DNA of 60,421 nucleotides, filler included. It is 5 parts of 5 records of this genome, joined end to end, with 100 filler letters (N's around TTAATTAATTAA, not from the genome) between each part and the next. Parts side by side here need not be neighbours in the genome. Positions count along the whole stretch, not along the records: positions 6,934 to 15,046 come from DRR723986_29885; 4 more parts are not named here. The stretch is one strand, 5' to 3'. The notes below the pieces were generated by a model. That model saw only the letters and a list, made by a program, of their open reading frames with translations. It was not told the DNA's origin and searched no databases. Each line of letters begins with the position of its first letter. Position 1 is the first letter of the stretch. This document shows positions 2,146 to 27,283 of the stretch, piece by piece. The position numbers and the translations under genes are program-made.

Positions 2146-2876
2146 TGCGGTTCGAAGGAAAGACTGTCCTTGTCACGGGCGGGCGAAGCGGCATTGGTCG
2201 TGCCATTGCCCGGCGCTTGCAAAATGAAGGTGCCAAGGTCTTCACGGCCCAGCGCGGCGAGGATCCTGAGTTTGAGCATGTCCAGGCGGATTTTGCCGAC
2301 ATGGAAGCCCCTGCCCGCATTATCGAAGACGTGGTAACGAAAGGCGGCAGGCTGGATGTGCTCGTCAACAATGCCGGCCTGATGCAGGAAGCGGCGATCG
2401 AAGACATGTCGCTCGCCGACTGGCAGCACTCGTTGGCGGTCAATCTGACCGCGCCTTTCCTGATGATCAAACATGCCTTGCCGCATTTGCGCCAGACACG
2501 CGGAAGCATCGTCAATGTCGGCTCCATCGAAGGCATCGGCTGCAATCCGCTGCACGCTGCCTATTCCGCCTCCAAGGCCGGGCTTCACGGCCTGACGCGC
2601 GCCGTTGCGGTCGATCACGGCAAGGACGGCGTCCGCTGCAACGCGGTTGCGCCAGGCTGGATCGATACGGAACTCAATCTCGAATTCATCAAGGCGACCA
2701 AGGATCCAGATGCCTTCCGGCGCGATATTGGCAAGATCCATCCGGCTGGCCGAACGGGCAAGCCGGAGGAAGTTGCCGCCTTGGTCGCTTTCCTGGCAGC
2801 GGAGGAAAGCGGTTTTGTCACCGGTCAGGTCTACACGGTCGACGGTGGCAGAATGACCCGGTTGAGCTTGCCCTGA
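2142..2876 (+). CDS. SDR family oxidoreductase
   Basis: TGGRSGIG, NNAG, YSASK; ATGA overlap with the previous SDR (translational coupling). Confidence 0.9.
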   Translation: MMRFEGKTVLVTGGRSGIGRAIARRLQNEGAKVFTAQRGEDPEFEHVQADFADMEAPARIIEDVVTKGGRLDVLVNNAGLMQEAAIEDMSLADWQHSLAVNLTAPFLMIKHALPHLRQTRGSIVNVGSIEGIGCNPLHAAYSASKAGLHGLTRAVAVDHGKDGVRCNAVAPGWIDTELNLEFIKATKDPDAFRRDIGKIHPAGRTGKPEEVAALVAFLAAEESGFVTGQVYTVDGGRMTRLSLP

Positions 2877-2891
2877 AGGGCTTGGAGCGGT

Positions 2892-3737
2892 TCAAAATGC
2901 CTGCCGAATAGCGGACTTCATTGTCCTGACGAGATCCTGATTGGCGCTGGCTGCGACGCCGATGACAAGTTTCGACATGGGTGTCGAGGCAAACCCATGC
3001 TCGTTGCCAAGCACCTTGAGGTGGCCCGCGAGAGTAGACCGCCCCAGAAGCCCAATCGCAATACCCGCTTCCACGGCAGCCGTTACGCCCGCCACGCTCT
3101 GGCTTGAAAAGGCAATCCGGTAAGGCCTCCCTCTTGCCTCAAGCGACTTGAGGGCCGCCTCACGCCACCAGCAGGCGCGGTCGAAAAGGGCGACCGGAAC
3201 CGGCTCTTCGGCCAGAAGATCCCGGTAACGCGACATTACCCAGCAGGTCGGGTCCTCGAAAACCACCTCTTCGTTCCTGCCGATCGTTTCAACCTCGTAG
3301 ACGGCAAGATCCATCTTTCCCCTGGACAGCAGTTCCGGGAAATCGGTGCTGATCGTACAGGTTACCTCAAGCTCCACCTGCGGGTGCGATTGTGCGAAGG
3401 CAGACAGGATCTTCGCAAGCTTTGCCTGGCCATGATCGTCAGGAATGCCGAGGCGAAGCTTCCCGCGCAAACCGTCGGCGGTGATTTCCCTCAGGACGGC
3501 ATCCAGCCGTTCTTTCACATCCCTTGCGACCGGCATCAGGCGCTGCCCGGTCTCCGTCAGCGTCACACCGCGGCCGGTCCGCTCGAACAGATCCCGCCCG
3601 ATCACCTCTTCAAGGCGCATGATCTGAAGACTGGTTGCCGATTGTGACCGGCCGATCAGGCGGGCACCTTCCGTGACGCTGCCCGTCCCGGCGACCGCCA
3701 GAAAGGTTCGGAGGAGTTCACTGTCGAGATTATTCAT
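2892..3737 (-). CDS. LysR family transcriptional regulator
   Basis: N-terminal HTH (LLRTFLAVAGTGSVTEGARLIGRSQSATSLQIMRLE...LFER) plus substrate-binding domain; ATG at 3737 chosen as start. Confidence 0.92.
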   Translation of the reverse strand: MNNLDSELLRTFLAVAGTGSVTEGARLIGRSQSATSLQIMRLEEVIGRDLFERTGRGVTLTETGQRLMPVARDVKERLDAVLREITADGLRGKLRLGIPDDHGQAKLAKILSAFAQSHPQVELEVTCTISTDFPELLSRGKMDLAVYEVETIGRNEEVVFEDPTCWVMSRYRDLLAEEPVPVALFDRACWWREAALKSLEARGRPYRIAFSSQSVAGVTAAVEAGIAIGLLGRSTLAGHLKVLGNEHGFASTPMSKLVIGVAASANQDLVRTMKSAIRQAF

Positions 3738-3747
3738 CCAATTTTTC

Positions 3748-3769
3748 AATATCTGACATTAAAGATATT
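3748..3769. promoter_or_regulatory. Palindromic operator candidate between divergent LysR and permease genes
   Basis: AATATCT-N8-AGATATT perfect 7-bp inverted repeat in an AT-rich divergent intergenic region. Confidence 0.5.
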
Positions 3770-3827
3770 CGTTTCACCAATATTTAGATCACGCCTAGTC
3801 TGAACCCGTCAATCACTGGAGGCCTTC

Positions 3828-4850
3828 ATGGAAGGACAGACGGCAACAGCCACGTTTTCTGGATCCCGAAGAATTGCCGCCGGAGCCGGAGCTGGCCTCC
3901 TCGCCGGGCTTGTCTGGCTGTGGCCGCAGTTCTTCAAACAGGGGATTCTGTTCACCGGACAGGGTCTCCTTCAGGTTGCCCCGCTCGTCGTGCCGGGCAT
4001 AGCCCTCACGGCCTGGATCATGGCCAGCGGTGCCGACAGGATCATCGGCCGCGCGTTTGAAGGACGGCTCATGCGCGCGGTCCTCGTGGCGTCTGCCATG
4101 GGGGCGATTACGCCGGTCTGCGGGGTGACGATCCTGCCTCTGATGGCCGGGTTGCTGGCAGCCGGGGTTCCCCTTGCCCCGGTCATGGCGTTCTGGCTGT
4201 CCTCGCCGATTACCGATCCGGCCATGCTGGCGACTACGGCGGCGACCCTCGGTATTACCTTTGCAGTCGGCAAGACCGTAGCAGCCTTCGCTCTGGGTGT
4301 ATTTGGCGGATCCGTCACAGCGGCGCTCACGCGTGAGCGAAGCGGTGAAGCGGCACTGCGGTCTGGTGGGCTCGCCGCGAAATTGACGGCGCGGTGCTGT
4401 GACGGCGCGACATCGTTTGAACCGCGTGTCTGGCGCAACAGCAGCCGGCGCAAGGCCTTCGCGCGGCAGGCAGCGGCAACGACACGGCTGATCCTGATCT
4501 GCTTGATCCCGGCCTTCTTTGCCGAATATGCGCTGAATGCGGCTCTGACCCCGGGATCGCTGGCAGCCTATCTTGGCTCGAACACCTGGTGGGCCATACC
4601 CGCCGCCGTCTTCGTCGGCGCACCGGCCTATATCGACGGTTATGCGGCCTTGCCGCTGACCCGCGGTCTCATCGACAACGGCATGTCGCCCGGCGCGGCG
4701 ATGGCGTTTCTGGTCTCCGGAGGTGTTGTCAGCATCTGGGGAGCGCTTGCGATATTCCCCGTACTGAAACTGCGCCCGTTTCTGCTTTACCTGGCGCTTG
4801 CCGTTACCGGCTCACTGATCTCGGGCTATGTGTTCGAATGGGTCTACTGA
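3828..4850 (+). CDS. Permease, ArsP/DUF318-like family
   Basis: Multi-TM; GAITPVCGVTILP, AFWLSSP, GMSPGAAMAFL motifs; GGAGG SD. Confidence 0.75.
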   Translation: MEGQTATATFSGSRRIAAGAGAGLLAGLVWLWPQFFKQGILFTGQGLLQVAPLVVPGIALTAWIMASGADRIIGRAFEGRLMRAVLVASAMGAITPVCGVTILPLMAGLLAAGVPLAPVMAFWLSSPITDPAMLATTAATLGITFAVGKTVAAFALGVFGGSVTAALTRERSGEAALRSGGLAAKLTARCCDGATSFEPRVWRNSSRRKAFARQAAATTRLILICLIPAFFAEYALNAALTPGSLAAYLGSNTWWAIPAAVFVGAPAYIDGYAALPLTRGLIDNGMSPGAAMAFLVSGGVVSIWGALAIFPVLKLRPFLLYLALAVTGSLISGYVFEWVY

Positions 4851-6833: not shown

Positions 6834-6933
6834 NNNNNNNNNNNNNNNNNNNNNNNNNNNNNNNNNNNNNNNNNNNNTTAATTAATTAANNNNNNNNNNN
6901 NNNNNNNNNNNNNNNNNNNNNNNNNNNNNNNNN
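6834..6933. other. Artificial contig spacer
   Basis: N44-TTAATTAATTAA-N44; stops in all six frames. Confidence 0.98.
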
Positions 6934-7699
6934 ATCCACGCCCGCAGCGTTCAGTCTTTGAGATCAGTCTCTAAGTCTTGGGGATACAAACCGCCCCCAC
7001 CGACAATTTGCAAGCTCCAATCAATTCAACACAATCCAAAAAAATTCACCGGCACTAACATGAGCAAATCATTGGACTTCCGCGCCTCCTGCGCAAGGCG
7101 TAACCTTCACCTAGGGAAAAGTGCGCCGCGTATTGTAGTGACAGAATTCTGACCAACCGTCGATGATTCAATTGACCGCGTCACCCGCCAGGCACAAATT
7201 CGGCGACAAGGTCAGGTAGATAGCGACACCTCAATCTTACTCAATACCGGTCACCAGTCTCAAGGCCGGCCTGGTGTTCTCCGCTATAGCTGCCAGTTCA
7301 GATCGCTGGTTTGACTGATCGCGGACGAAAACCCAGCGGACTACCATAGCTAACGCTCAGATACATTTTCCGAATAATTGCCGGCAATAATTGCCGGTTT
7401 GGAACTGGGACGCATCCCTAGAAGCAGTGGCTGAAGACATTGAGTGCGGAACAATCAGCGCAGATCTTTCGGATGAAAACATACGAATACCTGGGGCGGG
7501 CTGTGTGACCTGCGGCGGCCGGATCAGTGCAAAACAAAAAAATCAAACTAAGGCCACGCGCGCGTGAGACGCGCCTCCAAATCCTGAAACTGCTCCCAAA
7601 AGTGGGCCTGGAAGGGGCTGATTTAACATTTTCCAGGCGGGGCACAATCAATAAAACACACATCTAAACAATTACTTAATTTTCCGTTAAGTCTGCTGA

Positions 7700-8119
7700 T
7701 TAACTTTCACGAGCGGGACGTAGAATGTCGCGCATCAAATCGTCGCGTGTCGCCTCTTTAACAATGCGCAGAAGCGTCTCAAGATGATCATTCATACACT
7801 CAACATTGTACAGGAATGCGATAGTTTCCTGGCGTTCGGATTCATCGAGACGTTCATCCTCCAGAATGTCGCGACGCCGAAATGTTAAGTATTCACGAAA
7901 GCCAGATTGTGCCGCGTCAAAACGATAATGTTCAATTTCACGCAGGAATTCAGCCAGATAGTCGAGGCCGACCTGAATGGCGAGCGTAAATTCCTCGCGG
8001 TGTTCTTCCAGCGCAAGCATAAGCATTTGTGCATACTTAAACGGATGCTCGGACTTCAGATAAAGTTCACCACCCAGGCGCGCCATGCCGGGAAGTATCG
8101 GTGTATGTTCTGGTTGCAT
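7700..8119 (-). CDS. Hypothetical helical, acidic protein (139 aa)
   Basis: GGAG SD upstream of ATG; protein-like composition; family not recognised. Confidence 0.7.
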   Translation of the reverse strand: MQPEHTPILPGMARLGGELYLKSEHPFKYAQMLMLALEEHREEFTLAIQVGLDYLAEFLREIEHYRFDAAQSGFREYLTFRRRDILEDERLDESERQETIAFLYNVECMNDHLETLLRIVKEATRDDLMRDILRPARES

Positions 8120-8222
8120 TTTTTGTACTCCGCGCCGATATCATTTGTTAATTGTTTTACAATGCCTTAGTTAAGTAAAATTACATTTCTGCCTGGCTGT
8201 TCTACCGCCCGGGACGCCCGGT

Positions 8223-9857
8223 TTACGAGGCCTGAGCCGCCTGCCGACCGTCGCCTGTGGACCTGACTGCATTTAACTGCACAAACCAGGCTTCGCGGCC
8301 AATTGCCTCCAGCTCATTCATTACCAGGGACCACAAACGTTCATAGGGAATGACTTCAACACTATCGATGGCAGCGTCATATTGCGGCTGAATCGCGGCA
8401 AGTTTAGCAAGATGTTTAGCGGCGCGCCGACGAATCTCAACAGCATCAAAGTTGCAGTATAGAACCGTCAACATCAGGCGGACAAAGCAGTGGCTGCGTG
8501 CGTGTGAGCGATGCCGCAAATACGTTGAATTGTAGGTTTCGAGTACTGCTGCGCGATCCAATAAAACATCAAATTCGCGATAACGCAGGAGAAAAAGAAA
8601 ATGTGCGATTGTTATTGCAACGTTATAGCCGCGTTTATCCCGTGAAAATACGGGTAAGTCGTTAACAAAACCATAAATATTAAATTGTTTTGCCAGGAAA
8701 CTTTCGTGGTTCGCAAGTTCAACATTTCCTGCCAGGCAGGCAAAACGCAGATAGGCTTCAAAAATCCGCCATTTTTCGAGGCGTTGCGGATAAGCCGCAA
8801 GCTGACGCCGCTGCAGCGTAGCCTGACGATAAACCTGTGCGGCCGCCTGATATTCGCCCGCATGCATCTCCAATAAAAAATGCAATTCGAGCAGAGCAAA
8901 CCAATTGTAATCGCCCGCTGTTAACTCACCCAATCCGGCACGGACGTGGCGGCGGCCACGCGTGTATTTGCGCAAAAACAGGCAGCAGTACAATCGCGTC
9001 AGGTGCAGCTCGGTACGGCGTGCGCTGCTGTTGTGGCCGGCACTGACAAGATAGGCGTCAAACTCATCACAAACACGCAGTGTTCCAGCATAATCCTGCA
9101 CAATTTCGTGCTCCAGCAGGTGCAGACGGTGGTAGTACATTTGCAGGGTGGAGCTCTCGTGGCGGCGGCACAATTGTGCCAGGTGGATGCGATATTCACG
9201 TGCTTCACGCGCCAGGGCGGCATCCGCTGCTGTGGAGCGCGAAAGGCGCACGATGATGAGTTCGGCCATTTCACGCGCCGCAATCTCCTCGCCGTCAATC
9301 TGAATACATGTGTTGATTTCACGCGTCAGCGCCTCAAACTGGGCTTCCCGGCCATGCAGCGCGGCATGGCGGCGCAGGACCTTGCAGGCATTGATGCAGA
9401 TGCGCCAAAGCTCGTGGCGGCGTGCATCGCGGCGCAGCGTGCGCGCCATTGATTCGGCCGGTTGATGTGCACCGCAGCGCCGCAGAAACTGCATCGCCAC
9501 GTGGCGCTTCTCACAGCTGTAGACGGCTTTGCCGCGGTCCGACAGTGGAAAACGCGTCACGTCCAGGAACAACAGCATGTGCTGTGCCTGGCGCAGCACT
9601 TCACTTTTGAGCGTGATGTAGGGCCGCACCGTCGCCGCCGAATCATAGATTAACTCAGCGGCGCGGCGATCAAATTCCTGGGTTTCGGCGTCTGACTCAG
9701 CGCCTGCCGGCGCACCTTTAGATGCCGGATCGCCGGCCATGGCAGCAAAACGAAAGAGCTGCGCACACTTGGAACCGGCACTGAAGAACAGGTCCAGCCC
9801 CATCGCGCGATGGCGATATTCAGTTACCAGTTCAGCAATGTCGCGTAATAGCTGCAT
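8223..9857 (-). CDS. Large all-helical (TPR-like) hypothetical protein, paralog A (544 aa)
   Basis: AGGA SD; amphipathic helical repeats; collinear with 10142-11977; C-terminal FSRDKRGYN and EVIPYE motifs. Confidence 0.8.
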   Translation of the reverse strand: MQLLRDIAELVTEYRHRAMGLDLFFSAGSKCAQLFRFAAMAGDPASKGAPAGAESDAETQEFDRRAAELIYDSAATVRPYITLKSEVLRQAQHMLLFLDVTRFPLSDRGKAVYSCEKRHVAMQFLRRCGAHQPAESMARTLRRDARRHELWRICINACKVLRRHAALHGREAQFEALTREINTCIQIDGEEIAAREMAELIIVRLSRSTAADAALAREAREYRIHLAQLCRRHESSTLQMYYHRLHLLEHEIVQDYAGTLRVCDEFDAYLVSAGHNSSARRTELHLTRLYCCLFLRKYTRGRRHVRAGLGELTAGDYNWFALLELHFLLEMHAGEYQAAAQVYRQATLQRRQLAAYPQRLEKWRIFEAYLRFACLAGNVELANHESFLAKQFNIYGFVNDLPVFSRDKRGYNVAITIAHFLFLLRYREFDVLLDRAAVLETYNSTYLRHRSHARSHCFVRLMLTVLYCNFDAVEIRRRAAKHLAKLAAIQPQYDAAIDSVEVIPYERLWSLVMNELEAIGREAWFVQLNAVRSTGDGRQAAQAS

Positions 9858-9881
9858 GTGCAGTTTTATCCTGTTGCGGGC

Positions 9882-9935
9882 CGTGAGTGACCTTACCCAG
9901 CCCTGTTTTTTCGTATAAATTGCGAGTCACTCATG
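9882..9935. promoter_or_regulatory. Inverted repeat flanking a putative promoter in the divergent region
   Basis: CGTGAGTGAC-N34-GTCACTCATG (8-bp perfect core) enclosing TATAAATTG. Confidence 0.5.
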
Positions 9936-9986
9936 CTCGAAATTGGCATTAAACAAACTTGTCAATTTTATTTCCGGAGTGAATAC

Positions 9987-10196
9987 ATGGAAGTTATCCT
10001 TTCCATCCTGCTGTATTTAGGTGTCATCGTCAGCCCAGCCACGTACTACGACACTGAAATCGATGCGTTTGCCGATCAAAATGAGACGCAGATTACGGCC
10101 ATCCAGGCCGATGTGAACCTGACACAAACAATTGTGCAGGACTACCAGGACGAGGTCTCAATAATATTGATCATTGACTGGGAAACTGAGAAGTGA
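9987..10196 (+). CDS. Small, probably secreted acidic peptide (69 aa)
   Basis: GGAG SD 8 nt before ATG 9987; hydrophobic N-terminus MEVILSILLYLGVIVSPA then a D/E/Q/T-rich region. Confidence 0.7.
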   Translation: MEVILSILLYLGVIVSPATYYDTEIDAFADQNETQITAIQADVNLTQTIVQDYQDEVSIILIIDWETEK

Positions 10197-11977
10197 CGCC
10201 TGTCGGCGCCGCCCGGAGGCGCTAATTCCATATTGACGCCAGTTTTGGGCGGCATACTTTTTGCGCCGGCCGGATTCGCGGTTCTGCTCATAGGGCTATT
10301 AGTGGGGCTGATATTGGGACTAATAATATCGCTGACCGCGGACCGGGGCGTGTCATTTGGCCGCGGCCGCCGCAGGTAGTATTCGGCCGTTCTGTGCGGC
10401 TGGACAGGTTGGGGCGCTTCGGCCTGTAACATAGGCGGCCTTAGCGATTCAAAGCGCAGGAACTCCTGCTCGTCGCAGCCCGGGCTTGCGCTCAGCGCCG
10501 CAGCTACTTCACTTGCAGTTACAGCTCCGGAGGCCTCACAAAACAGCTGCAGAAGCGCGTGGCTGCGCGGAGCATCTGTGAATTGCGGCTGCCTTGTGAG
10601 CAGCGCGCTACAGTGCTGAGCAAGAATTTGTGCCGGCTGTGTGCTGCAGAGGCAGTCGAGCAGCAGATGCGCGGCTCTGATTTCCCACATTGCCGCCACC
10701 TGAATTTGGGGGCAGGGCCGCAGCGCCGTATTGGCCTGGAGACATGCCAGATTGTGCTTAATCAGGTTCCAGCGCGCCTGCATCAGTGGCGGCAGGCCGG
10801 ATAACTCAGAGTTTTTGTCGGCCGCATTCAGACAGTCCAGCGCTACCTGCAGATCACCCAGGCGCAGAGCCAAAATTGCCAGTTGCTGGCGCGCCACGGC
10901 GCGGTTGAGTTCTCCAGGGTCAAATTCAGAGCATAGTTTGTAGCCCAGCTCAATTCCGGCCGGATCAGCGCGATGCACCAGGCAGTGCAGACGCACCAGA
11001 TCCAGGCGCAGAAACTGCACGCGCCCTGTGATTTGCGGCTGTGTTTGCAGGTAGGCGCGATATTGGCTGCACTGCTCCAGCGCTTCCGCAGTATTGTTGA
11101 GCGCCATGGCGGCCTGGATACGCAGCTGGAAATATGCCGTTTCCAGGCTGCGGCCGGAGTGAATTCGCCGCAGATCGTTCAGGTTGGCCCAGTAGTGTGT
11201 GGCTGCATTCCCCAACGCCCGGCGGCGGCGACCCAGTATGTGCACATCCAGCGTGTGGCGCTGCAGCAATTCGGCCGCATAGGTTTCGGCATCGCGCAGG
11301 CCCCGCAAACGGCGCGTCTCCGCCGCATATTCTTCAAAGGCCTGGCCGTCACCACGGAGGGCCGCGTTCTGGCGCAGCAGCAGGCAACATTCCAACTGAA
11401 CGTAAATATCCTGCAGCACGCGCGCACGGCGCAGGAGTGCGAGCAGGAGCGGCATGGCACTCTCGCGTTTGCCGAGCATGACCAGGGTTTTGCAGGCCGC
11501 CAGTTGCATTGCACAGCGATGCAGCTTCCAGGCATGTGAGCCGCGCAGCTTGCGCGAGGGCCGCAGTAGTAGAAGCACGTCCGTCAACGCCTGCAGCACA
11601 CCTTGTTTGCGCGCATGGCGGCGGCGTTTGCGATTGCGTTCGTCAGCAGACTTTACGGCAGGCGACGCGGCGGCGGCATCTGACACTTCGGGCTCAGGAG
11701 ATTTTGACTCACAGGATCCTGACTTGGGGGGGTTGGGCTGGGAGCTGGGCGGCGCGTGCGCCGGCGCATCCAGGCAACGCGCCAAAAACTGATCCAACTC
11801 CGCTGTGGACATGGCGCCTGAAGTTCGACTGCGACCGGGAACACCAAGGGCGCCCGGCTCCAGTAACCCTTCGCATATTTCGCGTACCGGACGGCGGCTG
11901 CGCAGCAGGCGGCGTGGATCACACTCGCGGCTGCAGGCAGCAAGTATCGCCACGGCCATAGTCTTAAGCGAATGCAT
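10142..11977 (-). CDS. Large all-helical (TPR-like) hypothetical protein, diverged paralog B (611 aa)
   Basis: Aligns by eye with paralog A (LRQNAALRG/LRRHAALHG, YFQLRI/YYHRLHL, RSHALLQL/RSHCFVRL, EFLRFESL/EVIPYERL); Pro/Ser-rich insert and tail. Confidence 0.7.
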   Translation of the reverse strand: MHSLKTMAVAILAACSRECDPRRLLRSRRPVREICEGLLEPGALGVPGRSRTSGAMSTAELDQFLARCLDAPAHAPPSSQPNPPKSGSCESKSPEPEVSDAAAASPAVKSADERNRKRRRHARKQGVLQALTDVLLLLRPSRKLRGSHAWKLHRCAMQLAACKTLVMLGKRESAMPLLLALLRRARVLQDIYVQLECCLLLRQNAALRGDGQAFEEYAAETRRLRGLRDAETYAAELLQRHTLDVHILGRRRRALGNAATHYWANLNDLRRIHSGRSLETAYFQLRIQAAMALNNTAEALEQCSQYRAYLQTQPQITGRVQFLRLDLVRLHCLVHRADPAGIELGYKLCSEFDPGELNRAVARQQLAILALRLGDLQVALDCLNAADKNSELSGLPPLMQARWNLIKHNLACLQANTALRPCPQIQVAAMWEIRAAHLLLDCLCSTQPAQILAQHCSALLTRQPQFTDAPRSHALLQLFCEASGAVTASEVAAALSASPGCDEQEFLRFESLRPPMLQAEAPQPVQPHRTAEYYLRRPRPNDTPRSAVSDIISPNISPTNSPMSRTANPAGAKSMPPKTGVNMELAPPGGADRRHFSVSQSMINIIETSSW

Positions 11978-12236
11978 ACAGTCAACTCACACAAGTCACG
12001 TTTAATTGCCACTATTCGATCAAATACGCCCATATAAGTTAAGCAATTAATTAACCAGACGCTATATCTATTCACTGAGATTAGCACCGAATTTGGGCAA
12101 ATCGCCATCCCACGGCTGCATGATCCATCTAATAATTGTAGTTTTGCGGTAATACTACGCTTCCAGCGATGGCTCCGGCTATAACTCTGGCCGCGCTAAC
12201 TCTAAAGGTCTTCAGCAAGTAAATCCCAACCCGTTT

Positions 12237-12998
12237 ATGGCTCATCTCCTCTGTGTTGTCCCCTGCTACAATGAAGCTGAGCGCTTGCCGCGCCAGGAGT
12301 TCATTGACTTTAGCTGCGCAGGCCACCGCGTGGAATTTCTGATGGTCAATGATGGCAGCCGCGACGGCACCCTGGAAATGCTGCAGGCGATGCAGACTGA
12401 AGCCCCGGAGCATATCCGCGTGCTGGATGTACAGCCGAATGGCGGCAAAGCCGAAGCCGTGCGCCGCGGCATCCTCGCTGCCCTGCAGAACAAGCCGGAC
12501 TACGTAGCCTACTGGGATGCCGACCTGGCAACACCGCTCTGGGAGATACCGCGCTTCCTGGAAATCCTTGAGTCTAACGCCGCCGTACGCCTGGTGATGG
12601 GCTCGCGCGTTAAATTGCTCGGCCGCCGCGTGGACAGGAAACTGACGCGCCATATTCTGGGCCGCCTCTTTGCAACCGTGGTCTCACTCTCGCTGCGCCT
12701 GGCGGTGTACGACACGCAATGCGGCGCCAAAATGTTCCGCGTGCATGCGTCAACCCTCCCGCTCTTTGACCAGACTTTCCTGTCGCGCTGGGTGTTTGAC
12801 GTTGAGATTATTGCGCGAATGCTCGGTGAATTCAATCGTCACGGAATCGACCCGGAAGAGGCGCTCTATGAATTGCCGCTGCGCCAATGGGTTGACGTTG
12901 ACGGCTCCAAGTTAAATGCCGGCGACTTCCTGACTGCAGCACTTGACGTTCTGCGCATCCGCCGGCGCTACAAGACGGCTTTGCGCCCCAAGTCCTGA
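12237..12998 (+). CDS. Glycosyltransferase family 2 (polyprenol-phosphate glycosyltransferase-like)
   Basis: VVPCYNE, VNDGSRDGT, GKAEAV, DADLATP, DTQCGAKMFR, WVFDVE. Confidence 0.92.
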   Translation: MAHLLCVVPCYNEAERLPRQEFIDFSCAGHRVEFLMVNDGSRDGTLEMLQAMQTEAPEHIRVLDVQPNGGKAEAVRRGILAALQNKPDYVAYWDADLATPLWEIPRFLEILESNAAVRLVMGSRVKLLGRRVDRKLTRHILGRLFATVVSLSLRLAVYDTQCGAKMFRVHASTLPLFDQTFLSRWVFDVEIIARMLGEFNRHGIDPEEALYELPLRQWVDVDGSKLNAGDFLTAALDVLRIRRRYKTALRPKS

Positions 12999-13211
12999 GA
13001 CTGCAAGTCTCAAGTCTCTCCCCAAGACGCCAGAACGCAAAAAACACACAAAAAAAGAGTGAAAACCGCAGGCCTCCACTCTTGTAGTTATGAGTTTGTA
13101 TGTTTGAAATATTCAGTGCGGATAGATGCAGGCTTGCAGGCTAGCTGTACTAATGCGGTCGGTGGGCCCGTCTTGTGCGCCAATTGGCCCCAATTGACCC
13201 AATGTGGCCGG

Positions 13212-13619
13212 CTAGACCACTTTGGCAAAATGTGTAGAGTAAGAATCGCTGGCCAGTGATTCGGCCATCTCATAACGCGTCTTGTCCGCGTCGGATTTTA
13301 ACTGGTCAAACGTGGAATCCCTGGCAAACTTGGACTGAATGTGCTCAAACTCCATCTTGGAATGCAGCCAGTGGTCAAAATTTAGTAACATAGCCTCGAC
13401 GCAGTTAACGCCCTGGTATGCGCCACTCGTCTCACGCTGGATAAACTGATGCAGCTCGTCCGCGTACTTTACATCGAAATAGTAGGTCTTGTGCGACGTG
13501 CGATTTCCGTGGCCTTTCGCATAGTATCGCACCAGCACACCCATGTCATCGAACACGAACTCTAGGCCCATTGTGTCTCCGATGTCATTCGTGCGGGTGA
13601 AATCGTAGTATGTTGCCAT
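13212..13619 (-). CDS. Hypothetical protein (135 aa)
   Basis: GGGAGGG SD upstream of ATG; protein-like composition. Confidence 0.65.
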   Translation of the reverse strand: MATYYDFTRTNDIGDTMGLEFVFDDMGVLVRYYAKGHGNRTSHKTYYFDVKYADELHQFIQRETSGAYQGVNCVEAMLLNFDHWLHSKMEFEHIQSKFARDSTFDQLKSDADKTRYEMAESLASDSYSTHFAKVV

Positions 13620-13779
13620 ACGCTACCCTCCCGAGAATTAGAATGTTGGAATATGGATTGGAATCAGCCGCGTGGCTTTTGGCGCAAAAATCAAAGGTCA
13701 GCATGCAAAAACAGGCGCCGGCCCACAGCGGTATAGGCCTAGATAAAATAGCAGAAAAAGCGAGAATTAAAAGGACTCC

Positions 13780-14757
13780 ATGCCCACAATCGTATTCATG
13801 ATCGATGCCAACCCGCACTGGCGCATGCGCATCGCCGAACTGGAACGCGACTTTCCCGACTTCCGCGCCCTCATCCCCGAAAATGAAGATGAGCTGCTCA
13901 GCGCCCTAAAAACTGCCGACGCCGTGGTAGCCGGGCGTTTCCCCGTCGAACGCCTCGATCAGGCCCCCAAGCTCAAGGCCCTGTTTGTATCGTTTGCAGG
14001 CGTAAATCCCTTCCCACTTGCAGAAATTGCCAAACGCAATATTCTGATGGCCAACTCGCATGGCGCCGCACCGTTTGTAGCCGAACGCATCCTGGGCCTG
14101 ACACTTGCACTCCTGGGCCGCATCGCCGAAGCCGACCGCAAATTGCGCCGGGGCGACTGGCTGCGCGCCAAACCCGAACACTTCTGGCAGTCCCTCTCTG
14201 ATAAAACCGTCGTCATCATGGGCGTGGGCCACCTGGGCCAGTCCGCCGCGCGTCTACTCAGGCCGCTCACACAGAACATCCTTGGCTGGGGACGCCGCCC
14301 ACGCACACAAATCCCCGAACATTTTGACGAATACACCACCGACAAATCGCAGGCTCTTAAGGCCGCCGATGTATTGATTCTGACTGCACCACTTACCCCC
14401 GCAAGCGAAAATATCATCGACAAAACAGCGCTCGATCAACTGGGCCAGGCGTTTATTGTTAACGTTGGCCGCGCCAAACTCATCAATGAGGCCGCGCTCT
14501 ACAATGCCCTCAAACAGCAAACAATTGCGGGGCTGGCTACGGACGTGCATTACGTGTACAAACGCGGCGAGGACGGACCCAATTTCCCGTCCGAATTCCC
14601 ACTCCACGAGCTCGAAAATGTCGTTTTTACGGCACATTCAGCGGCACATGTAACGCAGGCGCGCCAGGCCAATATCGATGGTGCTTTTAGCAATATTCGC
14701 GAGTGGCTCAGCAGCGGAGCGGTTCTGAATCCGGTCGATCTCAGCGCCGGTTATTGA
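13780..14757 (+). CDS. D-isomer-specific 2-hydroxyacid dehydrogenase family protein
   Basis: GVGHLG Rossmann motif, NVGRA, LATDV, TAHSAA; AAGGA SD. Confidence 0.9.
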   Translation: MPTIVFMIDANPHWRMRIAELERDFPDFRALIPENEDELLSALKTADAVVAGRFPVERLDQAPKLKALFVSFAGVNPFPLAEIAKRNILMANSHGAAPFVAERILGLTLALLGRIAEADRKLRRGDWLRAKPEHFWQSLSDKTVVIMGVGHLGQSAARLLRPLTQNILGWGRRPRTQIPEHFDEYTTDKSQALKAADVLILTAPLTPASENIIDKTALDQLGQAFIVNVGRAKLINEAALYNALKQQTIAGLATDVHYVYKRGEDGPNFPSEFPLHELENVVFTAHSAAHVTQARQANIDGAFSNIREWLSSGAVLNPVDLSAGY

Positions 14758-15046
14758 GAGTGGATTTTGGGGCTGGATCTTCCCCCGCAGCTTCAGTACA
14801 CAACTCGGAAAATGGATACTGCTGACCAAGAGCGCTTGCGCCCCCCTGCGTTCCACTTGTGTGGCTGGCTGTTTCTTCTTGCTAGTTTTTGAGTGCATTT
14901 TCTGCAGTTTTTTTGTGCAAATTCTCTTTTGGCGCTGGGAATTGAGTCTGGAGTCAGCTCAGAATGGTGTGAATTTGGGTGCAGAATAGGCCGAAATCAT
15001 ATCAAATTCACACCCAAAAACCACCGGATCCAGCCCTAAGGGCTCG

Positions 15047-15146
15047 NNNNNNNNNNNNNNNNNNNNNNNNNNNNNNNNNNNNNNNNNNNNTTAATTAATT
15101 AANNNNNNNNNNNNNNNNNNNNNNNNNNNNNNNNNNNNNNNNNNNN
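15047..15146. other. Artificial contig spacer
   Basis: Same N/TTAATTAATTAA linker. Confidence 0.98.
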
Positions 15147-20454: not shown

Positions 20455-20554
20455 NNNNNNNNNNNNNNNNNNNNNNNNNNNNNNNNNNNNNNNNNNNNTT
20501 AATTAATTAANNNNNNNNNNNNNNNNNNNNNNNNNNNNNNNNNNNNNNNNNNNN
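20455..20554. other. Artificial contig spacer
   Basis: Same linker. Confidence 0.98.
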
Positions 20555-21691: not shown

Positions 21692-23848
21692 TTAAGCTTC
21701 TTTTGGAGCTTCTTCTTTTTTCTCTGGTTTTGGAAGTAATACTTTTCTAGAAAGTTTCCATTTCTTAGTTTTTGGATCTTGTCCAATAACTTTGAATTTC
21801 AACACATCTCCTTCTTTACATACTTCTTCAACTTTCTCCACTCTTCTGTGCTCAAGCTCAGAAATGTGAATCAATCCGTCAGTTCCTGGTAAAATCTCTA
21901 CGAAGCATCCGTAAGCCTGAACAGACTTTACTTTTCCTTCATAAATTTCACCTTCTTCAACTGTTGGAGGGAAAGCAATCAATTTAATTTTATCAACTGC
22001 GGCTTTCATATCGTCAGCGTTTGCAGATAAAATTTGAACTCTACCTTCACCTGTTTCAATCTCTTCAATCGTGATTGTGGTGTTGGTTTCTTTCTGTAAT
22101 TCTTGAATGATTTTACCACCAGGTCCGATAATTGCACCAATGCAATCGTTAGGAACAGTGATTCCTTCAATTCTAGGAGCAGACGGCTTCATATCAGCAG
22201 CAGGCTCAGCAATTGTTTTCAAGATTTCATTCAAGATATGATTTCTTCCTTCTTTCGCTTGGTTAAGCGCTTCAGTCAATACTTCAAAAGATAATCCGTC
22301 AACTTTGATATCCATCTGACAAGCAGTGATTCCGTTTGTTGTACCGGTTACTTTAAAGTCCATGTCACCTAAGTGATCTTCATCTCCTAAGATATCAGAC
22401 AATACGCAGTATTTTCCCTCAGCATCAGTAATCAATCCCATTGCGATTCCTGAAACAGGACGCTTGATTTTGATTCCACCATCCATCAAAGCCATGGTTC
22501 CAGCACAAACTGTTGCCATTGAAGATGAACCGTTTGATTCTAAGATCTCAGATACTAATCTAATAGTATATGGGCTTTCATCTACTGATGGAAGCATTCC
22601 TTTCAATGCTCTTAATGCTAAGTTTCCGTGTCCAATCTCTCTTCTTGAAACGCCTCTAATAGGTCTAGCTTCACCAGTTGAGAATGGAGGGAAGTTGTAG
22701 TGCAACATGAATCTTTCGTAACGCTTATCTGTTGCGCTATCAATCATTTGCTCATCCATTTTACCACCTAAAGTTAGGGTAGTTAATGATTGTGTTTCAC
22801 CTCTTGTAAATACTGCCGAACCGTGAGTTCCTGGTAAATAGTCAACTTCTGACCAGATTGGTCTGATTTCGTCCATTTTTCTACCATCTAATCTGATTCT
22901 TTCATCTAGCATTACTCTTCTTACAGCTTCTTTCTTCGCTTTGTTGAAGTAAACTTGGATGAATGGAGATTCAGCTTCTAAAGTTGCTTCATCTAATCCG
23001 TCAACGTATTCTTGGTAAATGTCTCTAAATAATTGAGCTCTCTTTTCTTTATCAGCTAAACCTTGTCTAGCAACACCTTTACACTTTTCAAAAACAGCAT
23101 TCCAGATTTTATCTTTGATTGCGTCATCATGTGTTTCGTGGCAATATTCTCTTTTAGTTTGAGCAGCAGGAACTCCTGAAGCTAAATCTAATTGGAATGC
23201 ACATTGTTTTCTAATTGCATCATGTGCAACCTTGATGATATCTACTAAGTCAGCCTCAGAGATTTCAGCCATTTCACCTTCAACCATTACAATGTTATCA
23301 GCCGTACCTGCGATCATACAATCAACATCAGCAACTGCTAACTCTTCTAAAGTTGGGTTTACAACGTATTTCCCATCAACTCTTGATACTCTTACTTCAG
23401 ACATTGGTCCACCGAAAGGGATATCAGAAACTGCGATTGCAGCAGATGCTGCGAATCCTGCCAATGAATCTGGCATGTTAACACCGTCATGAGACAATAA
23501 TTGCATCATTAACTGTGTGTCTGCGTGATAATCACTTGGGAAAAGCGGTCTTAATGCTCTATCCACCAAACGCATCACTAATATTTCGTCATCAGACGGT
23601 CTTGCTTCACGCTTTAAATATCCACCAGGGATTTTTCCTGCAGCATAGAATTTCTCTCTATAATCTACAGTTAAAGGTAAGAAGTCAACTCCGTCTTTTG
23701 CTTCTTTTGATGATACTACAGTAGCAAGAATCACTGTTCCGCCACATTTTACTACAACTGATCCGTCAGCTTGTTTTGCTAACTTCCCTGTTTCAACGGT
23801 GATTTCTCTTCCGTTTCCAACATCAATTGATTTTTCTATTACATTCAT
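21692..23848 (-). CDS. pnp: Polyribonucleotide nucleotidyltransferase (PNPase)
   Basis: [35 protein letters not shown] and S1 domains. Confidence 0.99.
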
Positions 23849-23931
23849 ATATGTGTATTTGTGATTTGGGGGCTTCTTTTATCCCAAATCGATTTAATTT
23901 ATACTTATTCAATTATATACCTAGGGTATAT

Positions 23932-23972
23932 AAACAGAAAGGACAATTGAAAAACGAATTTCAATTGTCCCC
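23932..23972 (-). terminator. rpsO terminator
   Basis: GGACAATTGAAA-6nt-TTTCAATTGTCC 12-bp stem followed by TTTCTGTTT on the minus strand. Confidence 0.75.
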
Positions 23973-24008
23973 TCTTAATACATTCTTCCCAGTTTAACCG
24001 GGAAAGGA

Positions 24009-24278
24009 TTATCTTCTTAATCCTAATTCTTTTACGATTGCTCTATAGCGCTCGATATCTTTTGCTTTTAAATAGTCTAATAAACTTCTTCTTTTACCAA
24101 CTAGTAATTGAAGAGATCTTTGCGTATTAAAGTCTTTTCTGTTTTTCTTTAAGTGCTCAGTTAAGTGAGCAATTCTGTATGAAAACATTGCGATTTGTCC
24201 TTCTGCAGAACCGGTGTCTTTCTCGCTTTTACCGTGTTTTTTGAAGATTTCTTCTTTCTTCTTTGAATCTAAATACAT
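24009..24278 (-). CDS. rpsO: 30S ribosomal protein S15
   Basis: DTGSAEGQIA...HLTEHLK...LVGKRRSLLDYL...LGLRR; rpsO-pnp synteny. Confidence 0.99.
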   Translation of the reverse strand: MYLDSKKKEEIFKKHGKSEKDTGSAEGQIAMFSYRIAHLTEHLKKNRKDFNTQRSLQLLVGKRRSLLDYLKAKDIERYRAIVKELGLRR

Positions 24279-24326
24279 TCCAATATTATTTCAATGATTA
24301 TTATGTACGTCTCTTAATAGACGGTG

Positions 24327-24334
24327 CAAAGATA
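24327..24334 (-). promoter_or_regulatory. Bacteroidota -7 promoter element (TATCTTTG) for rpsO
   Basis: Exact TAnnTTTG about 50 nt upstream of ATG. Confidence 0.7.
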
Positions 24335-24346
24335 CACTTTTTAAAT

Positions 24347-24381
24347 AATTATGAATTATGAATTCGAAATTATTCATGATT
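24347..24381. repeat. Short heptamer run (AATTATG-like) that folds into a hairpin
   Basis: aattatg aattatg aattcga aattatt catgatt; 24347-56 pairs with 24372-81. Confidence 0.55.
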
Positions 24382-24436
24382 TGGTAAGTTTTTGGCTTTT
24401 GTTTGAGAGTAGGGTGGCTGAATGATGTGCAAGACC

Positions 24437-24576
24437 AATCTATAATCTATACTCTATATTCTATGTTCTAGAATCTAAAATCTATACTCTTTAATCTATG
24501 CTCTATACTCTAGAATCTAGATTCTAAAATCTATACTCTAGAATCTATACTCTAGAATCTAGATTCTAAAACCTAA
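24437..24576. repeat. Degenerate 7-bp tandem array, 20 units (consensus A[A/C/T]TCTA[T/G/A])
   Basis: aatctat aatctat actctat attctat gttctag ... attctaa aacctaa; the last unit overlaps the accD stop. Confidence 0.92.
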
Positions 24577-25418
24577 TTCTTAAACATCTCCAACAACTTA
24601 CCTAGCTTGCTTTTTAAGTCTTTACGCTCAACAATTAAGTCTAAGAAACCGTGCTCTAAAACAAATTCAGAACGTTGGAATCCTTCAGGTAAGTCTCTAC
24701 CGATTGTTTCTTTAACAACTCTAGGACCTGCGAAAGCAATCAAAGCATCTGGCTCAGCAATATTCAAATCTCCTAACATGGCAAATGATGCTGTAACACC
24801 ACCTGTTGTAGGATCAGTTAAAAATGAGATGTAAGGTAATTTCGCTTCTGACAATTGATTCAATTTGGCAGATGTTTTTGCCATCTGCATTAATGAAAGA
24901 CCAGCTTCCATCATTCTTGCTCCACCTGATTTTGAAATCATTAAAAAGGGACAATTCAATTCAATGGCTTTATCAATTGCTCTTGCAATTTTTTCACCAA
25001 CAACAGATCCCATTGATCCACCAATGAAGTTGAAATCCATAGCGGCAATAACAATTGGCTCACCATTCATTTTACCATGAGCAACACGAATAGCATCTTT
25101 ATTTCCCGTTTTTTCTTGAACCGCTTTGACACGATCAACGTATTTTTTGGTATCCTCAAATTTTAATGGATCACCAGATTCAATACCTCTTGCAAACTCA
25201 GAACCTTTTTTGCTGTCGAATAAAATTTCGAAATAATCTTTTGCACCGATACGTTCGTGATGGTCACAAACGCCACACACAAACAAGTTTTCTTTGTGAT
25301 CTTCTGATGCAACAACTGTTTTACACTTCGGACACTTATACCATAATCCTTCTGGTGTCTCTTTCTTATCAGCAGTGGAAGTTGAAATCCCCTGTTTTTC
25401 TCTCTTAAACCAACCCAT
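24573..25418 (-). CDS. accD: Acetyl-CoA carboxylase carboxyltransferase beta subunit
   Basis: CPKC...CGVC zinc finger, [31 protein letters not shown]. Confidence 0.98.
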
Positions 25419-25445
25419 GTGTTTCTAGTATTTTGTTCGCTTTAA

Positions 25446-26510
25446 TTAAGCAATTGTAATCGAATCATCAAGATAAACATCTTGAACCGCATTAATCAAT
25501 TTTACTCCATCCGCAAATGGCTTTTGGAAGGCTTTTCTTCCTAAGATTAATCCGTGACCTGCTGCTCTCTTGTTAATTACAGCAGTTTTAATTCCAACTT
25601 CAAAATCAGTAGAAGCACTTCCAGTAGAAGCACCTCCTGAATTAATCAATCCGTTTCTTCCCATGTAGCAGTTGGCCACCATGTAACGGCATAAATCAAT
25701 TGGATTATCAGTTGTTAAATCTGAATAAACTTTATCGTGTGTTTTACCAAAATTGATTGCTGGATATCCACCATTTAATTCAGGTAATTTTTGTTTAATA
25801 ATATCTGCTTGAATAGTTACACCAATATGTGTTGCTTGAGAAGAAATATCTGTAGCCGTGTGGTAATCAACACCGTCTTTTTTGAATGCAGAATTTCTCA
25901 GGTAACACCATAAAATAGTAGCCATACCTAATTCGTGCGCTCTTTCAAATGCTTCAGCAATTTCTACAATTTGTCTTTCTGATCCTTCAGAACCAAAATA
26001 AATTGTTGCGCCAACAGCAGTAGCTCCTAAATTCCAAGCTTCATCAACCGATCCAAAAGGAATTTGGTTGAAGGTGTTAGGATAAGATAAGAACTCATTG
26101 TGGTTTAACTTTACAATGAACGGAATTTTGTGTGCATACTTTCTAGAACATGCAGCTAATACACCGAAAGTTGAGGCTACACCGTTACACCCAGCTTCAA
26201 CAGCAAGTTTCACAATGTTTTCAGGATCCATATACATAGGATTTGGCGCAAATGATGCACCTGCTGAATGCTCAATTCCTTGGTCAACTGGTAAAATAGA
26301 AACATAACCTGTTCCTGCCAGTCTACCGTGGTTATAAAGTGCTTCTAAACTCTTTAATACTTGAGGTGAGCGATTTGATTGTAAAAAACTTCTATCCACG
26401 AAGTCGCCACCTGGCAACATCAACATGTCTTTAGAAATGGTTTTACATTCGTGATTCAAAAGGGCTTCTCCTTCGGCTCCGAGTAATTCAACAACTTTAT
26501 TAGCTGACAT
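25446..26510 (-). CDS. fbaB: Class I fructose-bisphosphate aldolase (DhnA/FbaB)
   Basis: [49 protein letters not shown] box at 26535-42. Confidence 0.95.
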
Positions 26511-26578
26511 AATAATAGATTAAATTTAGGTGGGCAAAATTAATAAAACTTTCGGTTGTTCCTGAAATTTTGAGACAA

Positions 26579-27283
26579 TTAATTGGCAGTTTGCAAGGCC
26601 AATTTTTTTTCATTGATAATTTTGAGCGCCAGTTCTAGTTGATCTTCTTCGCTCAATTCAGAATTGTCAATCTCTATGGCGTCTTCAGCTTTAGAGAGCG
26701 GGGCTATTTCTCTGTTCATGTCTAAATAATCCCTACGTGCAATGCTTTTTTTAACATCTTCTAAACTGATAGATTCACCTTTATCGATCAATTCTAAATA
26801 ACGTCTTTGTGCTCGAATATCATTATCTGCAGTCATGAACAACTTCACTTCAGCATGCGGAAAAACAACGGTTCCGATATCTCTTCCATCCATGATTACA
26901 CCACCCATTTGCCCAAGGTCTTGTTGGATTTTTACCAATTTAGTTCGCACTTCTCCAATGGCGCTAATGGCACTCACTTGCTTTGAAATAGCTAAGGTCC
27001 GGATGTCTTTTTCAATGTTTTCTCCGTTGAGATAAGTTTCAGATTTTTTTTGATCTCGGTTATACTCAAAACGTATCTCAATGTCATTCAATTCGTTAAG
27101 TACTTGTTCTTTGATGAAATGACCGTCTTTTAAAATGCCGGTATTGATCAAATGCAGTGTTACGGCTCGATACATTGCTCCACTGTCTACATAGATGTAA
27201 TTCAGTTTATTAGCCAATTCTTTAGCCAATGTGCTTTTACCACATGATGAAAAACCGTCTATTGCAATCGTAATTTCTGACAC
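26579..27283 (-). CDS. cmk: Cytidylate kinase
   Basis: IAIDGFSSCGKST, DSGAMYRA, MDGRDIGTVVFP; GTG start. Confidence 0.97.
   Translation of the reverse strand: MSEITIAIDGFSSCGKSTLAKELANKLNYIYVDSGAMYRAVTLHLINTGILKDGHFIKEQVLNELNDIEIRFEYNRDQKKSETYLNGENIEKDIRTLAISKQVSAISAIGEVRTKLVKIQQDLGQMGGVIMDGRDIGTVVFPHAEVKLFMTADNDIRAQRRYLELIDKGESISLEDVKKSIARRDYLDMNREIAPLSKAEDAIEIDNSELSEEDQLELALKIINEKKLALQTAN

Follow-up and report, generated by a model that had tools for sequence, protein, structure and literature searches.

A putative propeptide–receptor family encoded by divergent gene pairs in Bacteroidota

The window analysed here is a stretch of 60,421 nucleotides made of five joined contigs, and its contig at positions 6934 to 15046 carries a 69-aa open reading frame (ORF) divergent from the gene of a 544-aa protein, paralog A. 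It is moderately probable, from sequence comparison, that this ORF and A are a cognate propeptide–receptor pair of a widespread Bacteroidota family. Such a divergent layout of propeptide and receptor genes is typical of peptide-based cell-to-cell signalling. An initial annotation, made from the letters of the window, had proposed a peptide-sensing module of this kind; the pairing turned out to be conserved across the family, while the helix-turn-helix (HTH) that formed part of the proposal was not detected. The contig is syntenic with two contigs of metagenome-assembled genomes (MAGs), L001 and L002, at about 72% nucleotide identity, and these two, together with the locus L003, supply the orthologs compared below. 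The features of the pair, in positions of the window, are as follows.

9987..10196, plus strand: propeptide gene, 69 aa and stop codon, with 69-aa orthologs in L001, L002 and L003
9858..9986, no strand: spacer of 129 bp separating the divergent genes of A and the propeptide; blastn identity to L001/L002 of 73.7% over 9881-10196
9976..9979, plus strand: Shine-Dalgarno-like GGAG, 7 nt before the propeptide ATG
9987..10037, plus strand: leader, residues 1-17, MEVILSILLYLGVIVSP, assigned from hydropathy and from conservation across the 69-aa class
10038..10160, plus strand: acidic pro-region, residues 18-58; alignments show its conservation in the Kapaibacterium-like class
10161..10193, plus strand: C-terminal core, residues 59-69, IILIIDWETEK; hydrophobic at first, with an acidic tail; putative mature signal
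10208..10262, plus strand: GC-rich hairpin and UUUUU after the propeptide stop codon, a weak candidate terminator (fold z = -1.89)
8223..9857, minus strand: paralog A, 544 aa, putative peptide receptor and full family member

The small gene and paralog A

It was found that the 69-aa ORF is a conserved coding gene and not a chance ORF. Between the window and L001, the differences at codon positions 1, 2 and 3 number 11, 6 and 34, and of the changed codons 23 are synonymous and 16 non-synonymous. By blastn, the alignment to L001 stops exactly at the stop codon of the small ORF, and most of the 3′ part of the next gene, paralog B, is unalignable. The length of 69 aa is held even in L003, where A is only 40% identical to that of the window. 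Thus, the conservation of the ORF, which the initial annotation had put forward as a check, is borne out by the orthologs and by the codon bias. An alternative start at 9933, which would give 87 aa, found no support among the homologs, which all start at the ME or MQ of the 69-aa form. A profile of the 69-aa propeptide class matches 30 protein clusters in a collection of 5.8 billion proteins, and the few named clusters among them are called 'hypothetical protein', except for one odd JGI name.

The Shine-Dalgarno sequence, the hydrophobic leader, the acidic region, the IIDWETEK end and the 129-bp spacer are all as the initial annotation had described them for this plus-strand ORF. The leader is signal-peptide-like, with a mean Kyte-Doolittle value of 2.48 over residues 1-15, and ends in a conserved S-P-[G/A]. 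There are 13 D/E residues in the ORF against 1 K/R. L001 and L002 share the core unchanged, and that of L003 (ILIIDFETEY) is nearly the same. GGAG- or AGGA-like motifs lie 7-10 nt ahead of the ATG in most of the paralogous propeptide genes of G002, which is the closest genome to the locus-bearing contig. Both promoters of the divergent pair presumably lie within 9858..9986; a scan of 9700-10400 for sigma-70 promoters and consensus terminators, with other promoter types outside its scope, gave none. The hairpin at 10208..10262 is matched in folding by 10 of 200 shuffles. Rfam had no match on the locus-bearing contig, and inspection by eye of 10 intergenic regions of the Kapaibacterium-like class revealed no common operator.

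Paralog A is about 72-73% identical to its orthologs in L001 and L002, and its differences from L001 at codon positions 1, 2 and 3 number 113, 90 and 268. It retains 35 of the 37 family-conserved positions, defined as those with at least 85% conservation. Neither A nor B has a hydrophobic stretch of transmembrane grade (the maximum KD19 of A is 1.36), and A is predicted to be soluble. The family consists of basic proteins (median net charge +19), and the peptide cores are acidic. The initial annotation had recognised no characterised family here, and this was upheld: A matches none in Pfam, NCBIfam, PADLOC or PHROGs, and the last two also gave nothing for B and the peptide.

How widespread is the family? 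A word-seeded search found 5 relatives only, and a pattern scan of GTDB genomes found 100, of which 80 were kept. These GTDB relatives are nearly all Bacteroidota, including Chitinophagales, Saprospiraceae, Kapaibacterium MAGs and Hymenobacter isolates. A hidden Markov model (HMM) of the family, searched against 1.84 billion representatives, gave 4024 matches at E<=1e-3, of which 2134 reach E<=1e-30. Among the top 150 representatives, almost all have a length of 491-570 aa, and the family median is about 508 aa. Longer or fused forms were not found, which is weak evidence, apart from P0110 (1032 aa), where two family units are fused head-to-tail; tandem pairs of family genes lie in L067 and L068. 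In an even sample across the phylum, 16 of 301 genomes have the family. The number of copies is 17, 10 and 14 in three genomes and 1 in Hymenobacter setariae. A search of JGI metagenome contigs with single-protein patterns yielded no close relatives of the window's A.

Pairing, peptide cores and transport genes across the family

Is the small ORF a regular partner of the family genes? The upstream regions of 77 family genes (from 80 genome loci and the window) were searched with two regular expressions, one for a hydrophobic leader of the M-x-LLxILLxLG..SP type and one for a C-terminus in which a hydrophobic run is followed by acidic residues. On the divergent strand, the C-terminal motif was found in 39 of the 77 regions and the leader motif in 31; the co-directional strand gave 1 and 0, respectively, and shuffles gave 1-5 (in 20) and 0-4. 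Either motif is present on the divergent strand in 56 of the 77. Seven of the 21 misses can be put down to B-type copies, to the second gene of a tandem pair or, once, to a wrongly called start, and at least 5 more carry variant peptides by eye (e.g. ...IVIIDPRQEF, ...EVIDPSEGK, IKGG|IMAIDIDGL and ...LILDEDNWSY). Since both expressions were post hoc, they were applied unchanged to an independent metagenome set, in which 60 of 77 loci were usable; here 31 of 60 had a match on the divergent strand and 6 on the co-directional one, and 20 shuffles gave 0-6. Nineteen of the 29 metagenome misses were inspected; 5 have a tandem-repeat propeptide and one more has a hydrophobic-leader ORF. Thus, the initial annotation's further check, whether a divergent small ORF is consistently adjacent to homologs, came out in favour of the pairing in both sets.

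The pairing persists across clades whose other neighbours are entirely different. These neighbours vary by clade and include the housekeeping genes tig-clpP-clpX, DUF1501/DUF1800, recQ, gldD and mutY, among others, and the neighbourhoods have no conserved modifying enzyme, exporter, processing protease or immunity gene. A functional link to the clpX/clpP/tig genes that flank the pair in one clade was dismissed as clade-specific synteny. Adjacent response-regulator genes, seen at 24 of 80 loci, were likewise considered as a Rap-like output and rejected, their frequency being about that of chance by a rough estimate apart from the synteny of one clade. Within single genomes, 8 of the 16 family ORFs examined in G002 have their own propeptide of 68-72 aa, with cores that are all different, and so do 5 of 10 family ORFs in G003, again with different cores.

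Propeptides are 20-98 aa long in nearly all family loci, with one candidate of 132 aa. Three types of leader precede one kind of core, namely hydrophobic, short basic and GG-type leaders. The short basic forms, of 20-25 aa, are found in Chitinophagales (e.g. ...IPVGVIVIIDNDEL, ...SKIPVGVIVIIDNDEL and MERMLYSLLFALGFRNIVIIDMDEL). In the GG-type, the core directly follows the GG, as in the variant form with IKGG given above, RTGG|IVIEDETLG, EGG|VVVLEDLDEL, and IVDDLDTM in duplicate after IKGG. Hymenobacter-type precursors have 3-4 tandem cores (e.g. IGGSGWEND x4), which are uniform within a precursor and variable among species (WEND, WDHD, WGHD, WDND, WGGGD). Thus, the leaders are interchangeable and the position of the core is conserved. 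None of 20 propeptides, including the GG-type ones of L037 and L063, matched an NCBIfam or Pfam family.

In the Kapaibacterium-like class, the leader and an acidic pro-region of about 40 residues are conserved and the last 10-12 residues are variable, the mean pairwise identity being 0.40 over residues 1-57 and 0.22 in the core. Fifteen pairs with at least 80% identity in residues 1-57 have a mean identity of 0.90 there and 0.57 in the core, and in one group of four propeptides the identity is 95-100% up to residue 57 but only 45-64% in the core. Receptor identity and core identity correlate over 14 pairs (r=0.44, 3 of 2000 permutations as high), with a partial r=0.37 given the pro-region (8 of 2000 permutations); kinship is only partly controlled in this correlation, and the orthologous trio of the window, L001 and L003 adds to the signal. 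As for the co-variation of peptide and receptor, another check named in the initial annotation, this correlation points to it, and single columns in the Chitinophagales clade gave no clear signal.

Transport genes accompany the pair in Hymenobacter. In Hymenobacter setariae (L079:5195-9279, minus strand), the propeptide gene is followed after 62 bp by an SBP_bac_5 gene and two BPD_transp_1 permease genes on the same strand. This gene set has the make-up of an Opp/Dpp-type peptide importer, in an apparent operon headed by the propeptide gene. In each of the 8 Hymenobacter-type loci that could be evaluated (L074, L077, L079, L080, L157-L160), the propeptide gene is succeeded by an SBP_bac_5 gene; 4 of these genes are full-length, and 4 are metagenome fragments cut at the end of the locus, with matches under the cut-off (E 2e-5 to 2e-3). 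ABC exporters with a C39 peptidase are present, 2-4 in each, in 5 of 5 genomes with GG-type propeptides, and also in 7 of 14 control genomes.

In 13 Chitinophagales loci (L004, L005, L006, L010-L014, L016, L018, L023, L026, L028; e.g. L011:9359-9386), a peptide gene of 20-29 codons is followed by a 3′ untranslated region (3′UTR) of about 33 nt that is 100% invariant and then by a hairpin with a U-tract. Paired cells make up 84% of this hairpin, where shuffles give 69% and none of 500 reaches the observed value, and 6 pairs changed on both sides. The covarying terminator hairpin makes the tiny peptide gene an independent transcription unit in this clade. Since the 3′UTR is conserved beyond any coding part, it may serve as a binding site or belong to an RNA with a dual function. 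The stretch is single-copy in 4 of 4 genomes checked and absent from IMG/VR, and Rfam found tRNAs only in three Chitinophagales loci. Between the peptide and receptor genes of Chitinophagales loci lies a region of about 390 bp (e.g. L011:9467-9856), in which TTTGTGACA is repeated three times in direct orientation, near positions -300, -215 and -95 relative to the receptor start. TGTGAC is present in 27 of 62 intergenic regions, where 2.6 would be expected. The opposite strand has a TAnnTTTG box, the Bacteroidota -7 promoter consensus, about 45 nt ahead of the peptide ATG.

Paralog B, neighbouring genes and mobile copies

Two further genes adjoin the pair.

10142..11977, minus strand: paralog B, 611 aa, convergent with the propeptide gene; fast-evolving and degenerate
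7700..8119, minus strand: 139-aa ORF, 103 bp downstream of A on the same strand; acidic

The initial annotation had called the 544-aa and 611-aa minus-strand proteins paralogs, and this was confirmed by BLASTP (E=7e-8, 23% identity over 377 aa), with all four of the quoted motif pairs present. B also matches an HMM of the relatives of A at E=3.1e-27. In a FastTree phylogeny, the B copies of the window, L001 and L003 form a clade whose sister group is the A genes from those loci (support 99). Between the window and L001, B is 52% identical in amino acids against 73% for A, and an excess of third-position differences persists in B (181/160/271). The window's B retains 14 of the 37 conserved positions, having lost 23, and the three B copies retain 14-22. 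All three lack E361, A368, D407-K-x-G-x-N412 and Y442. No motif-bearing ORF was found upstream of B, which hence has no propeptide of its own. The 3′ end of B overlaps that of the small ORF by 55 bp, and since the overlap is absent in L003, it is incidental. B is best described, from these comparisons, as a lineage-specific degenerate duplicate of A; it may be in decay, or it may serve as a second partner with a different wiring. The arrangement in which two paralogs bracket the peptide, as first proposed, is real in the clade of the window, L001, L002 and L003, but it is not general to the system.

The 139-aa ORF is kept directly downstream of A in L001 and L002 (65% identity) and in L003 (40%), and a distant homolog sits after a family paralog in L007 and L009. 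Its differences at codon positions 1, 2 and 3 number 35, 21 and 80. It has no significant Pfam or NCBIfam family, the matches being at chance level and far under the cut-off. This ORF may be an accessory or target gene and part of the module in this lineage. The order shared with L001 and L002 is 2-hydroxyacid dehydrogenase, 135-aa ORF, GT2 glycosyltransferase, B, small ORF, A and 139-aa ORF. The 135-aa ORF (13212-13619, minus strand) is 87% identical in L001 and 65% in L003, which exceeds the conservation of its neighbours, and it has no family match.

The five contigs of the window are joined by N/TTAATTAATTAA linkers at 6834-6933, 15047-15146, 20455-20554 and 42478-42577. The G+C content is 0.52-0.63 upstream of 20.5 kb and 0.34-0.41 beyond. 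The low-GC part, tested over 22000-40000, is 97-99% identical to the nearest genome available for comparison, G001, in which the locus-bearing contig of 8.1 kb has no match. Since the G+C content is split and the locus-bearing contig is absent from G001, the bin is chimeric, with at least two organisms, and the locus belongs to a different, higher-GC organism than the low-GC contigs. Its lineage is Bacteroidota, near Kapaibacterium, in agreement with the earlier remark that it does not look like a Firmicute.

The family is essentially chromosomal, with 1 locus in IMG/VR and 1 plasmid record, and a tblastn search of the GenBank phage collection found no member. The plasmid copy, L107 (NZ_CP053909.1 62156-63688), named 'hypothetical protein' in RefSeq, is on a 141-kb non-mobilizable Hymenobacter plasmid, where a tyrosine recombinase and a transposase adjoin it. 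The IMG/VR locus, L106, is putatively viral and lies at the end of a 44-kb contig; a 44-aa ORF (2549-2683, minus strand) is divergent from the family gene (2872-4374, plus strand) and has a hydrophobic leader and a GG-containing tail (…NGGTGAWSEKL).

Comparison with known systems and alternative explanations

What kind of protein is A? Neither A nor B of the window has a Pfam match at E<=1. Among 74 members of the family, sub-threshold TPR matches occur around residues 273-331 (TPR_8 in 12, TPR_14 in 9 and TPR_2 in 4). In a profile search of PDB, a designed TPR was the sole sequence match (E=0.04), and an internal-repeat test with hhalign on 100-residue segments was weak at best (E=0.0055). 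Thus, a TPR fold of A is weakly hinted at by sequence; the TPR-like character that the initial annotation had assigned keeps the sub-threshold matches and has none above the cut-off. Its HTH-like N-terminus was not supported. GMT-wHTH is the one HTH model among the 25 most-matched Pfam families of the 74 members at E<=1; it matched 1 member, at E=0.014 and under the cut-off, and a profile of the N-terminus (91 columns) found no DNA-binding protein in PDB at E<=10. An N-terminal motif, D.EAA..LY........Y..LKSR, was considered as an HTH like that of sigma-70 region 4 or LuxR and rejected, as its spacing is off the consensus of that HTH and no search supported it.

Apart from Rap, the known RRNPP subfamilies have an N-terminal HTH. 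The five-criterion signature of RRNPP systems, as given in the available text of PMC10075063, comprises a secreted propeptide of 10-100 aa and a receptor of 250-500 aa with TPRs, encoded by directly neighbouring genes. The 69-aa propeptide is within this size range and the genes are adjacent, with the 129-bp divergent spacer and the family-wide pairing; A and B, at 544 and 611 aa, are slightly too long. An hhalign comparison of phi3T AimR with the family profile gave a probability of 0.5%, AimR alone being compared by profile, with PrgX, Rgg, PlcR and Rap outside the comparison. No RRNPP structure was among the PDB profile matches at E<=10. Since neither homology nor an HTH was found, the family is not filed as a member of RRNPP; by analogy, the system would most likely work like RRNPP.

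As in Rgg/SHP and PrgX/PrgQ, pairs of streptococci and enterococci whose receptors are cytoplasmic helical-repeat proteins, the putative receptor gene lies beside, and often divergent from, a very short propeptide gene with the active peptide at the C-terminus, and the 20-25-aa propeptides of the family, basic and then hydrophobic, resemble SHP and PrgQ. Re-import in those systems is by the Opp system. In contrast to them, there is no detectable sequence relationship and no XRE-type HTH was found here, the protein is longer (about 500-545 aa) and belongs to diderm Bacteroidota, the cores are acidic and not purely hydrophobic, and many members have a long conserved acidic pro-region. SHP and PrgQ exit via PptAB and not Sec, according to the available text of PMC10075063. 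The A/B pair recalls Rgg2/Rgg3, two paralogous receptors that share neighbouring peptides in the portion of PMC3509411 that treats them. Rap/Phr of Bacillus is similar in that a genome has many paralogous receptor–propeptide pairs, each with its own peptide, and in that an export leader at the N-terminus of the propeptide is combined with a mature peptide at its C-terminus. Rap is not known to have an HTH and acts on other proteins, and phr is downstream of rap and overlaps it in one operon. Here, the genes are divergent, and Pfam and PDB searches found no similarity, Rap being outside the direct comparison.

The AimR/AimP arbitrium system of SPbeta-like phages shares the logic of a receptor and an adjacent propeptide, but the present family is essentially chromosomal and does not align with phi3T AimR (the probability of 0.5% given above). 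The TPR 'carboxylate clamp' of Hop and CHIP binds the acidic C-terminal EEVD tails of Hsp70 and Hsp90. Recognition of a free acidic C-terminus by helical repeats would fit a core at the very C-terminus, but the clamp is a eukaryotic co-chaperone system. As for GG_sam_targ_CFB, the NCBIfam type for GG-leader natural-product precursors of Bacteroidota, this precursor class gave no model match, and no conserved radical-SAM or C39-ABC neighbour was found, the C39 exporters being elsewhere in the genomes. Tandemly duplicated pheromone propeptides of RRNPPA systems, in the part of PMC11343458 that deals with them, have several copies of the mature peptide per precursor, as the Hymenobacter-type precursors do, but in another phylum, with another receptor family and core chemistry.

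If the 69-aa ORF and A are indeed a propeptide and its receptor, the propeptide would be exported via its N-terminal leader, and cleavage would release the C-terminal 8-12 residues or so, here around IILIIDWETEK. The peptide would then be re-imported, in Hymenobacter probably through the Opp-like ABC importer encoded behind the propeptide gene, and would bind the basic helical-repeat (TPR-like) body of cytoplasmic A. A would in turn alter the expression or activity of its targets, probably including the divergent propeptide gene. What the comparisons show is a two-gene cassette, conserved in a large family that lacks annotation, and several independent hallmarks of a peptide ligand that is specific and processed; I infer that such a ligand is exported, cleaved, taken up again and bound, and what kind of output follows. 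The output step is a guess, because neither an HTH nor another output domain was detected; A might regulate transcription through a DNA-binding domain of a new kind, or it might modulate other proteins as Rap does.

Several points weigh against a propeptide–receptor pair. All of the TPR matches are under the Pfam cut-offs, 0 of 74 members have an HTH above the Pfam cut-off, and the family searches found no output domain of another kind. The leader lacks the basic n-region typical of Sec signals, and a diderm cell requires passage of the outer membrane, for which none is proposed. The regular expressions were designed from the first data set, and the metagenome repeat, which alone is out of sample, gave a lower rate (31/60). 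L034 and L040 have no recognisable peptide, and neither does the plasmid copy L107, upstream of which is a 205-aa hydrophobic ORF instead. In a Flavobacteriaceae-like subclade (L024, L117, L120), the divergent partner is a conserved non-hydrophobic protein of 68 aa (M..D.KINLN.KEDVLMLF.EIK...P..DELEILSAVA...), which in L024 lies about 272 bp upstream of the receptor start. Column-wise analysis of covariation between receptor and core in the Chitinophagales clade gave no clear column. Finally, ILIIDWETEK is invariant between the window and L001/L002, and therefore no diversification is visible in the window's own lineage.

Some of these points would suit a small protein that stays with the cell, as a membrane-tethered or cytosolic partner whose acidic tail binds A. 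It would be an anti-factor or adaptor, and the pair a cell-autonomous switch with no diffusible signal. A leader lacking a basic n-region could be a membrane anchor, the forms of 20-25 aa are very short, the non-hydrophobic 68-aa protein takes the same position in one subclade, and no conserved exporter or processing protease lies beside the pair. However, GG-type leaders right before the core, as they are generally read, imply cleavage and export, and tandem repeated cores suit a peptide that is processed and released. The Opp-like importer operon after the propeptide gene in 8 of 8 evaluable Hymenobacter-type loci also speaks for a peptide outside the cell, and hypervariable cores on near-identical pro-regions resemble pherotype diversification. 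I regard such a switch as unlikely. The chances seem smaller still that the small gene is a regulated target or effector, either an active peptide or a dual-function RNA, with A as its dedicated regulator. Divergent regulator–target pairs are common, the invariant 3′UTR of about 33 nt in 13 Chitinophagales loci suggests a function at the RNA level, and the three conserved TTTGTGACA sites of the Chitinophagales intergenic region would suit a regulator. But no DNA-binding domain was detected in A, the core–receptor correlation goes beyond the pro-region, the acidic cores match a basic protein, and the many paralogous pairs per genome with different cores would be left unexplained.

The small ORFs may also be compared with precursors of ribosomally synthesized and post-translationally modified peptides (RiPPs) or bacteriocins, with A as a maturation, immunity or scaffold protein. 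A conserved leader with a variable core, and GG-type leaders, are typical of such precursors too, and C39-peptidase ABC exporters are present in 5 of 5 genomes with GG-type propeptides, though in 7 of 14 controls as well. This explanation is very improbable, given that no modifying enzyme, exporter or immunity gene is conserved nearby, that the 37 conserved positions of A lack a catalytic-looking set of His, Cys or Ser, that the cores are short and acidic with no conserved patterns of Cys, Ser or Thr, and that the NCBIfam and Pfam precursor models are unmatched. It is hardly credible that the association is historical and not functional, a conserved small gene merely lying beside A-family genes. 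Some members do lack a recognisable small ORF, but the pairing is found across clades with otherwise different neighbours and at up to 8 paralogous loci in one genome, and the orientation is strictly divergent (39 vs 1 for the C-terminal motif and 31 vs 0 for the leader motif).

Quorum sensing by peptides with cytoplasmic receptors is ascribed to Firmicutes and the mobile elements that they carry. Only Firmicutes genomes were covered in the RRNPP_detector survey, as described in the available text of PMC10075063, and N-acyl-cyclolysines are the sole Bacteroidota signal mentioned in the available text of a 2026 review (PMC13419125). In full-text literature outside subscription journals and supplements, no description of a peptide–receptor system in Bacteroidota was found. 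It is tentatively suggested that the propeptide–receptor pairs described here represent the first peptide communication family of Bacteroidota, with a receptor fold unrelated or distantly related to RRNPP, dozens of specificities, up to about 17 paralogs per genome, interchangeable leaders, pherotype-like cores and, in Hymenobacter, Opp-like re-import. If this is true, intracellular peptide sensing would have arisen independently in a diderm phylum, and about 4000 sequence clusters named 'hypothetical protein' would acquire a function. Environmental Bacteroidota (Chitinophagales, Saprospiraceae, Kapaibacteriaceae and Hymenobacter) would have private-channel signalling, and the export and re-import of a peptide signal by a diderm cell would become directly testable in cultured Hymenobacter.

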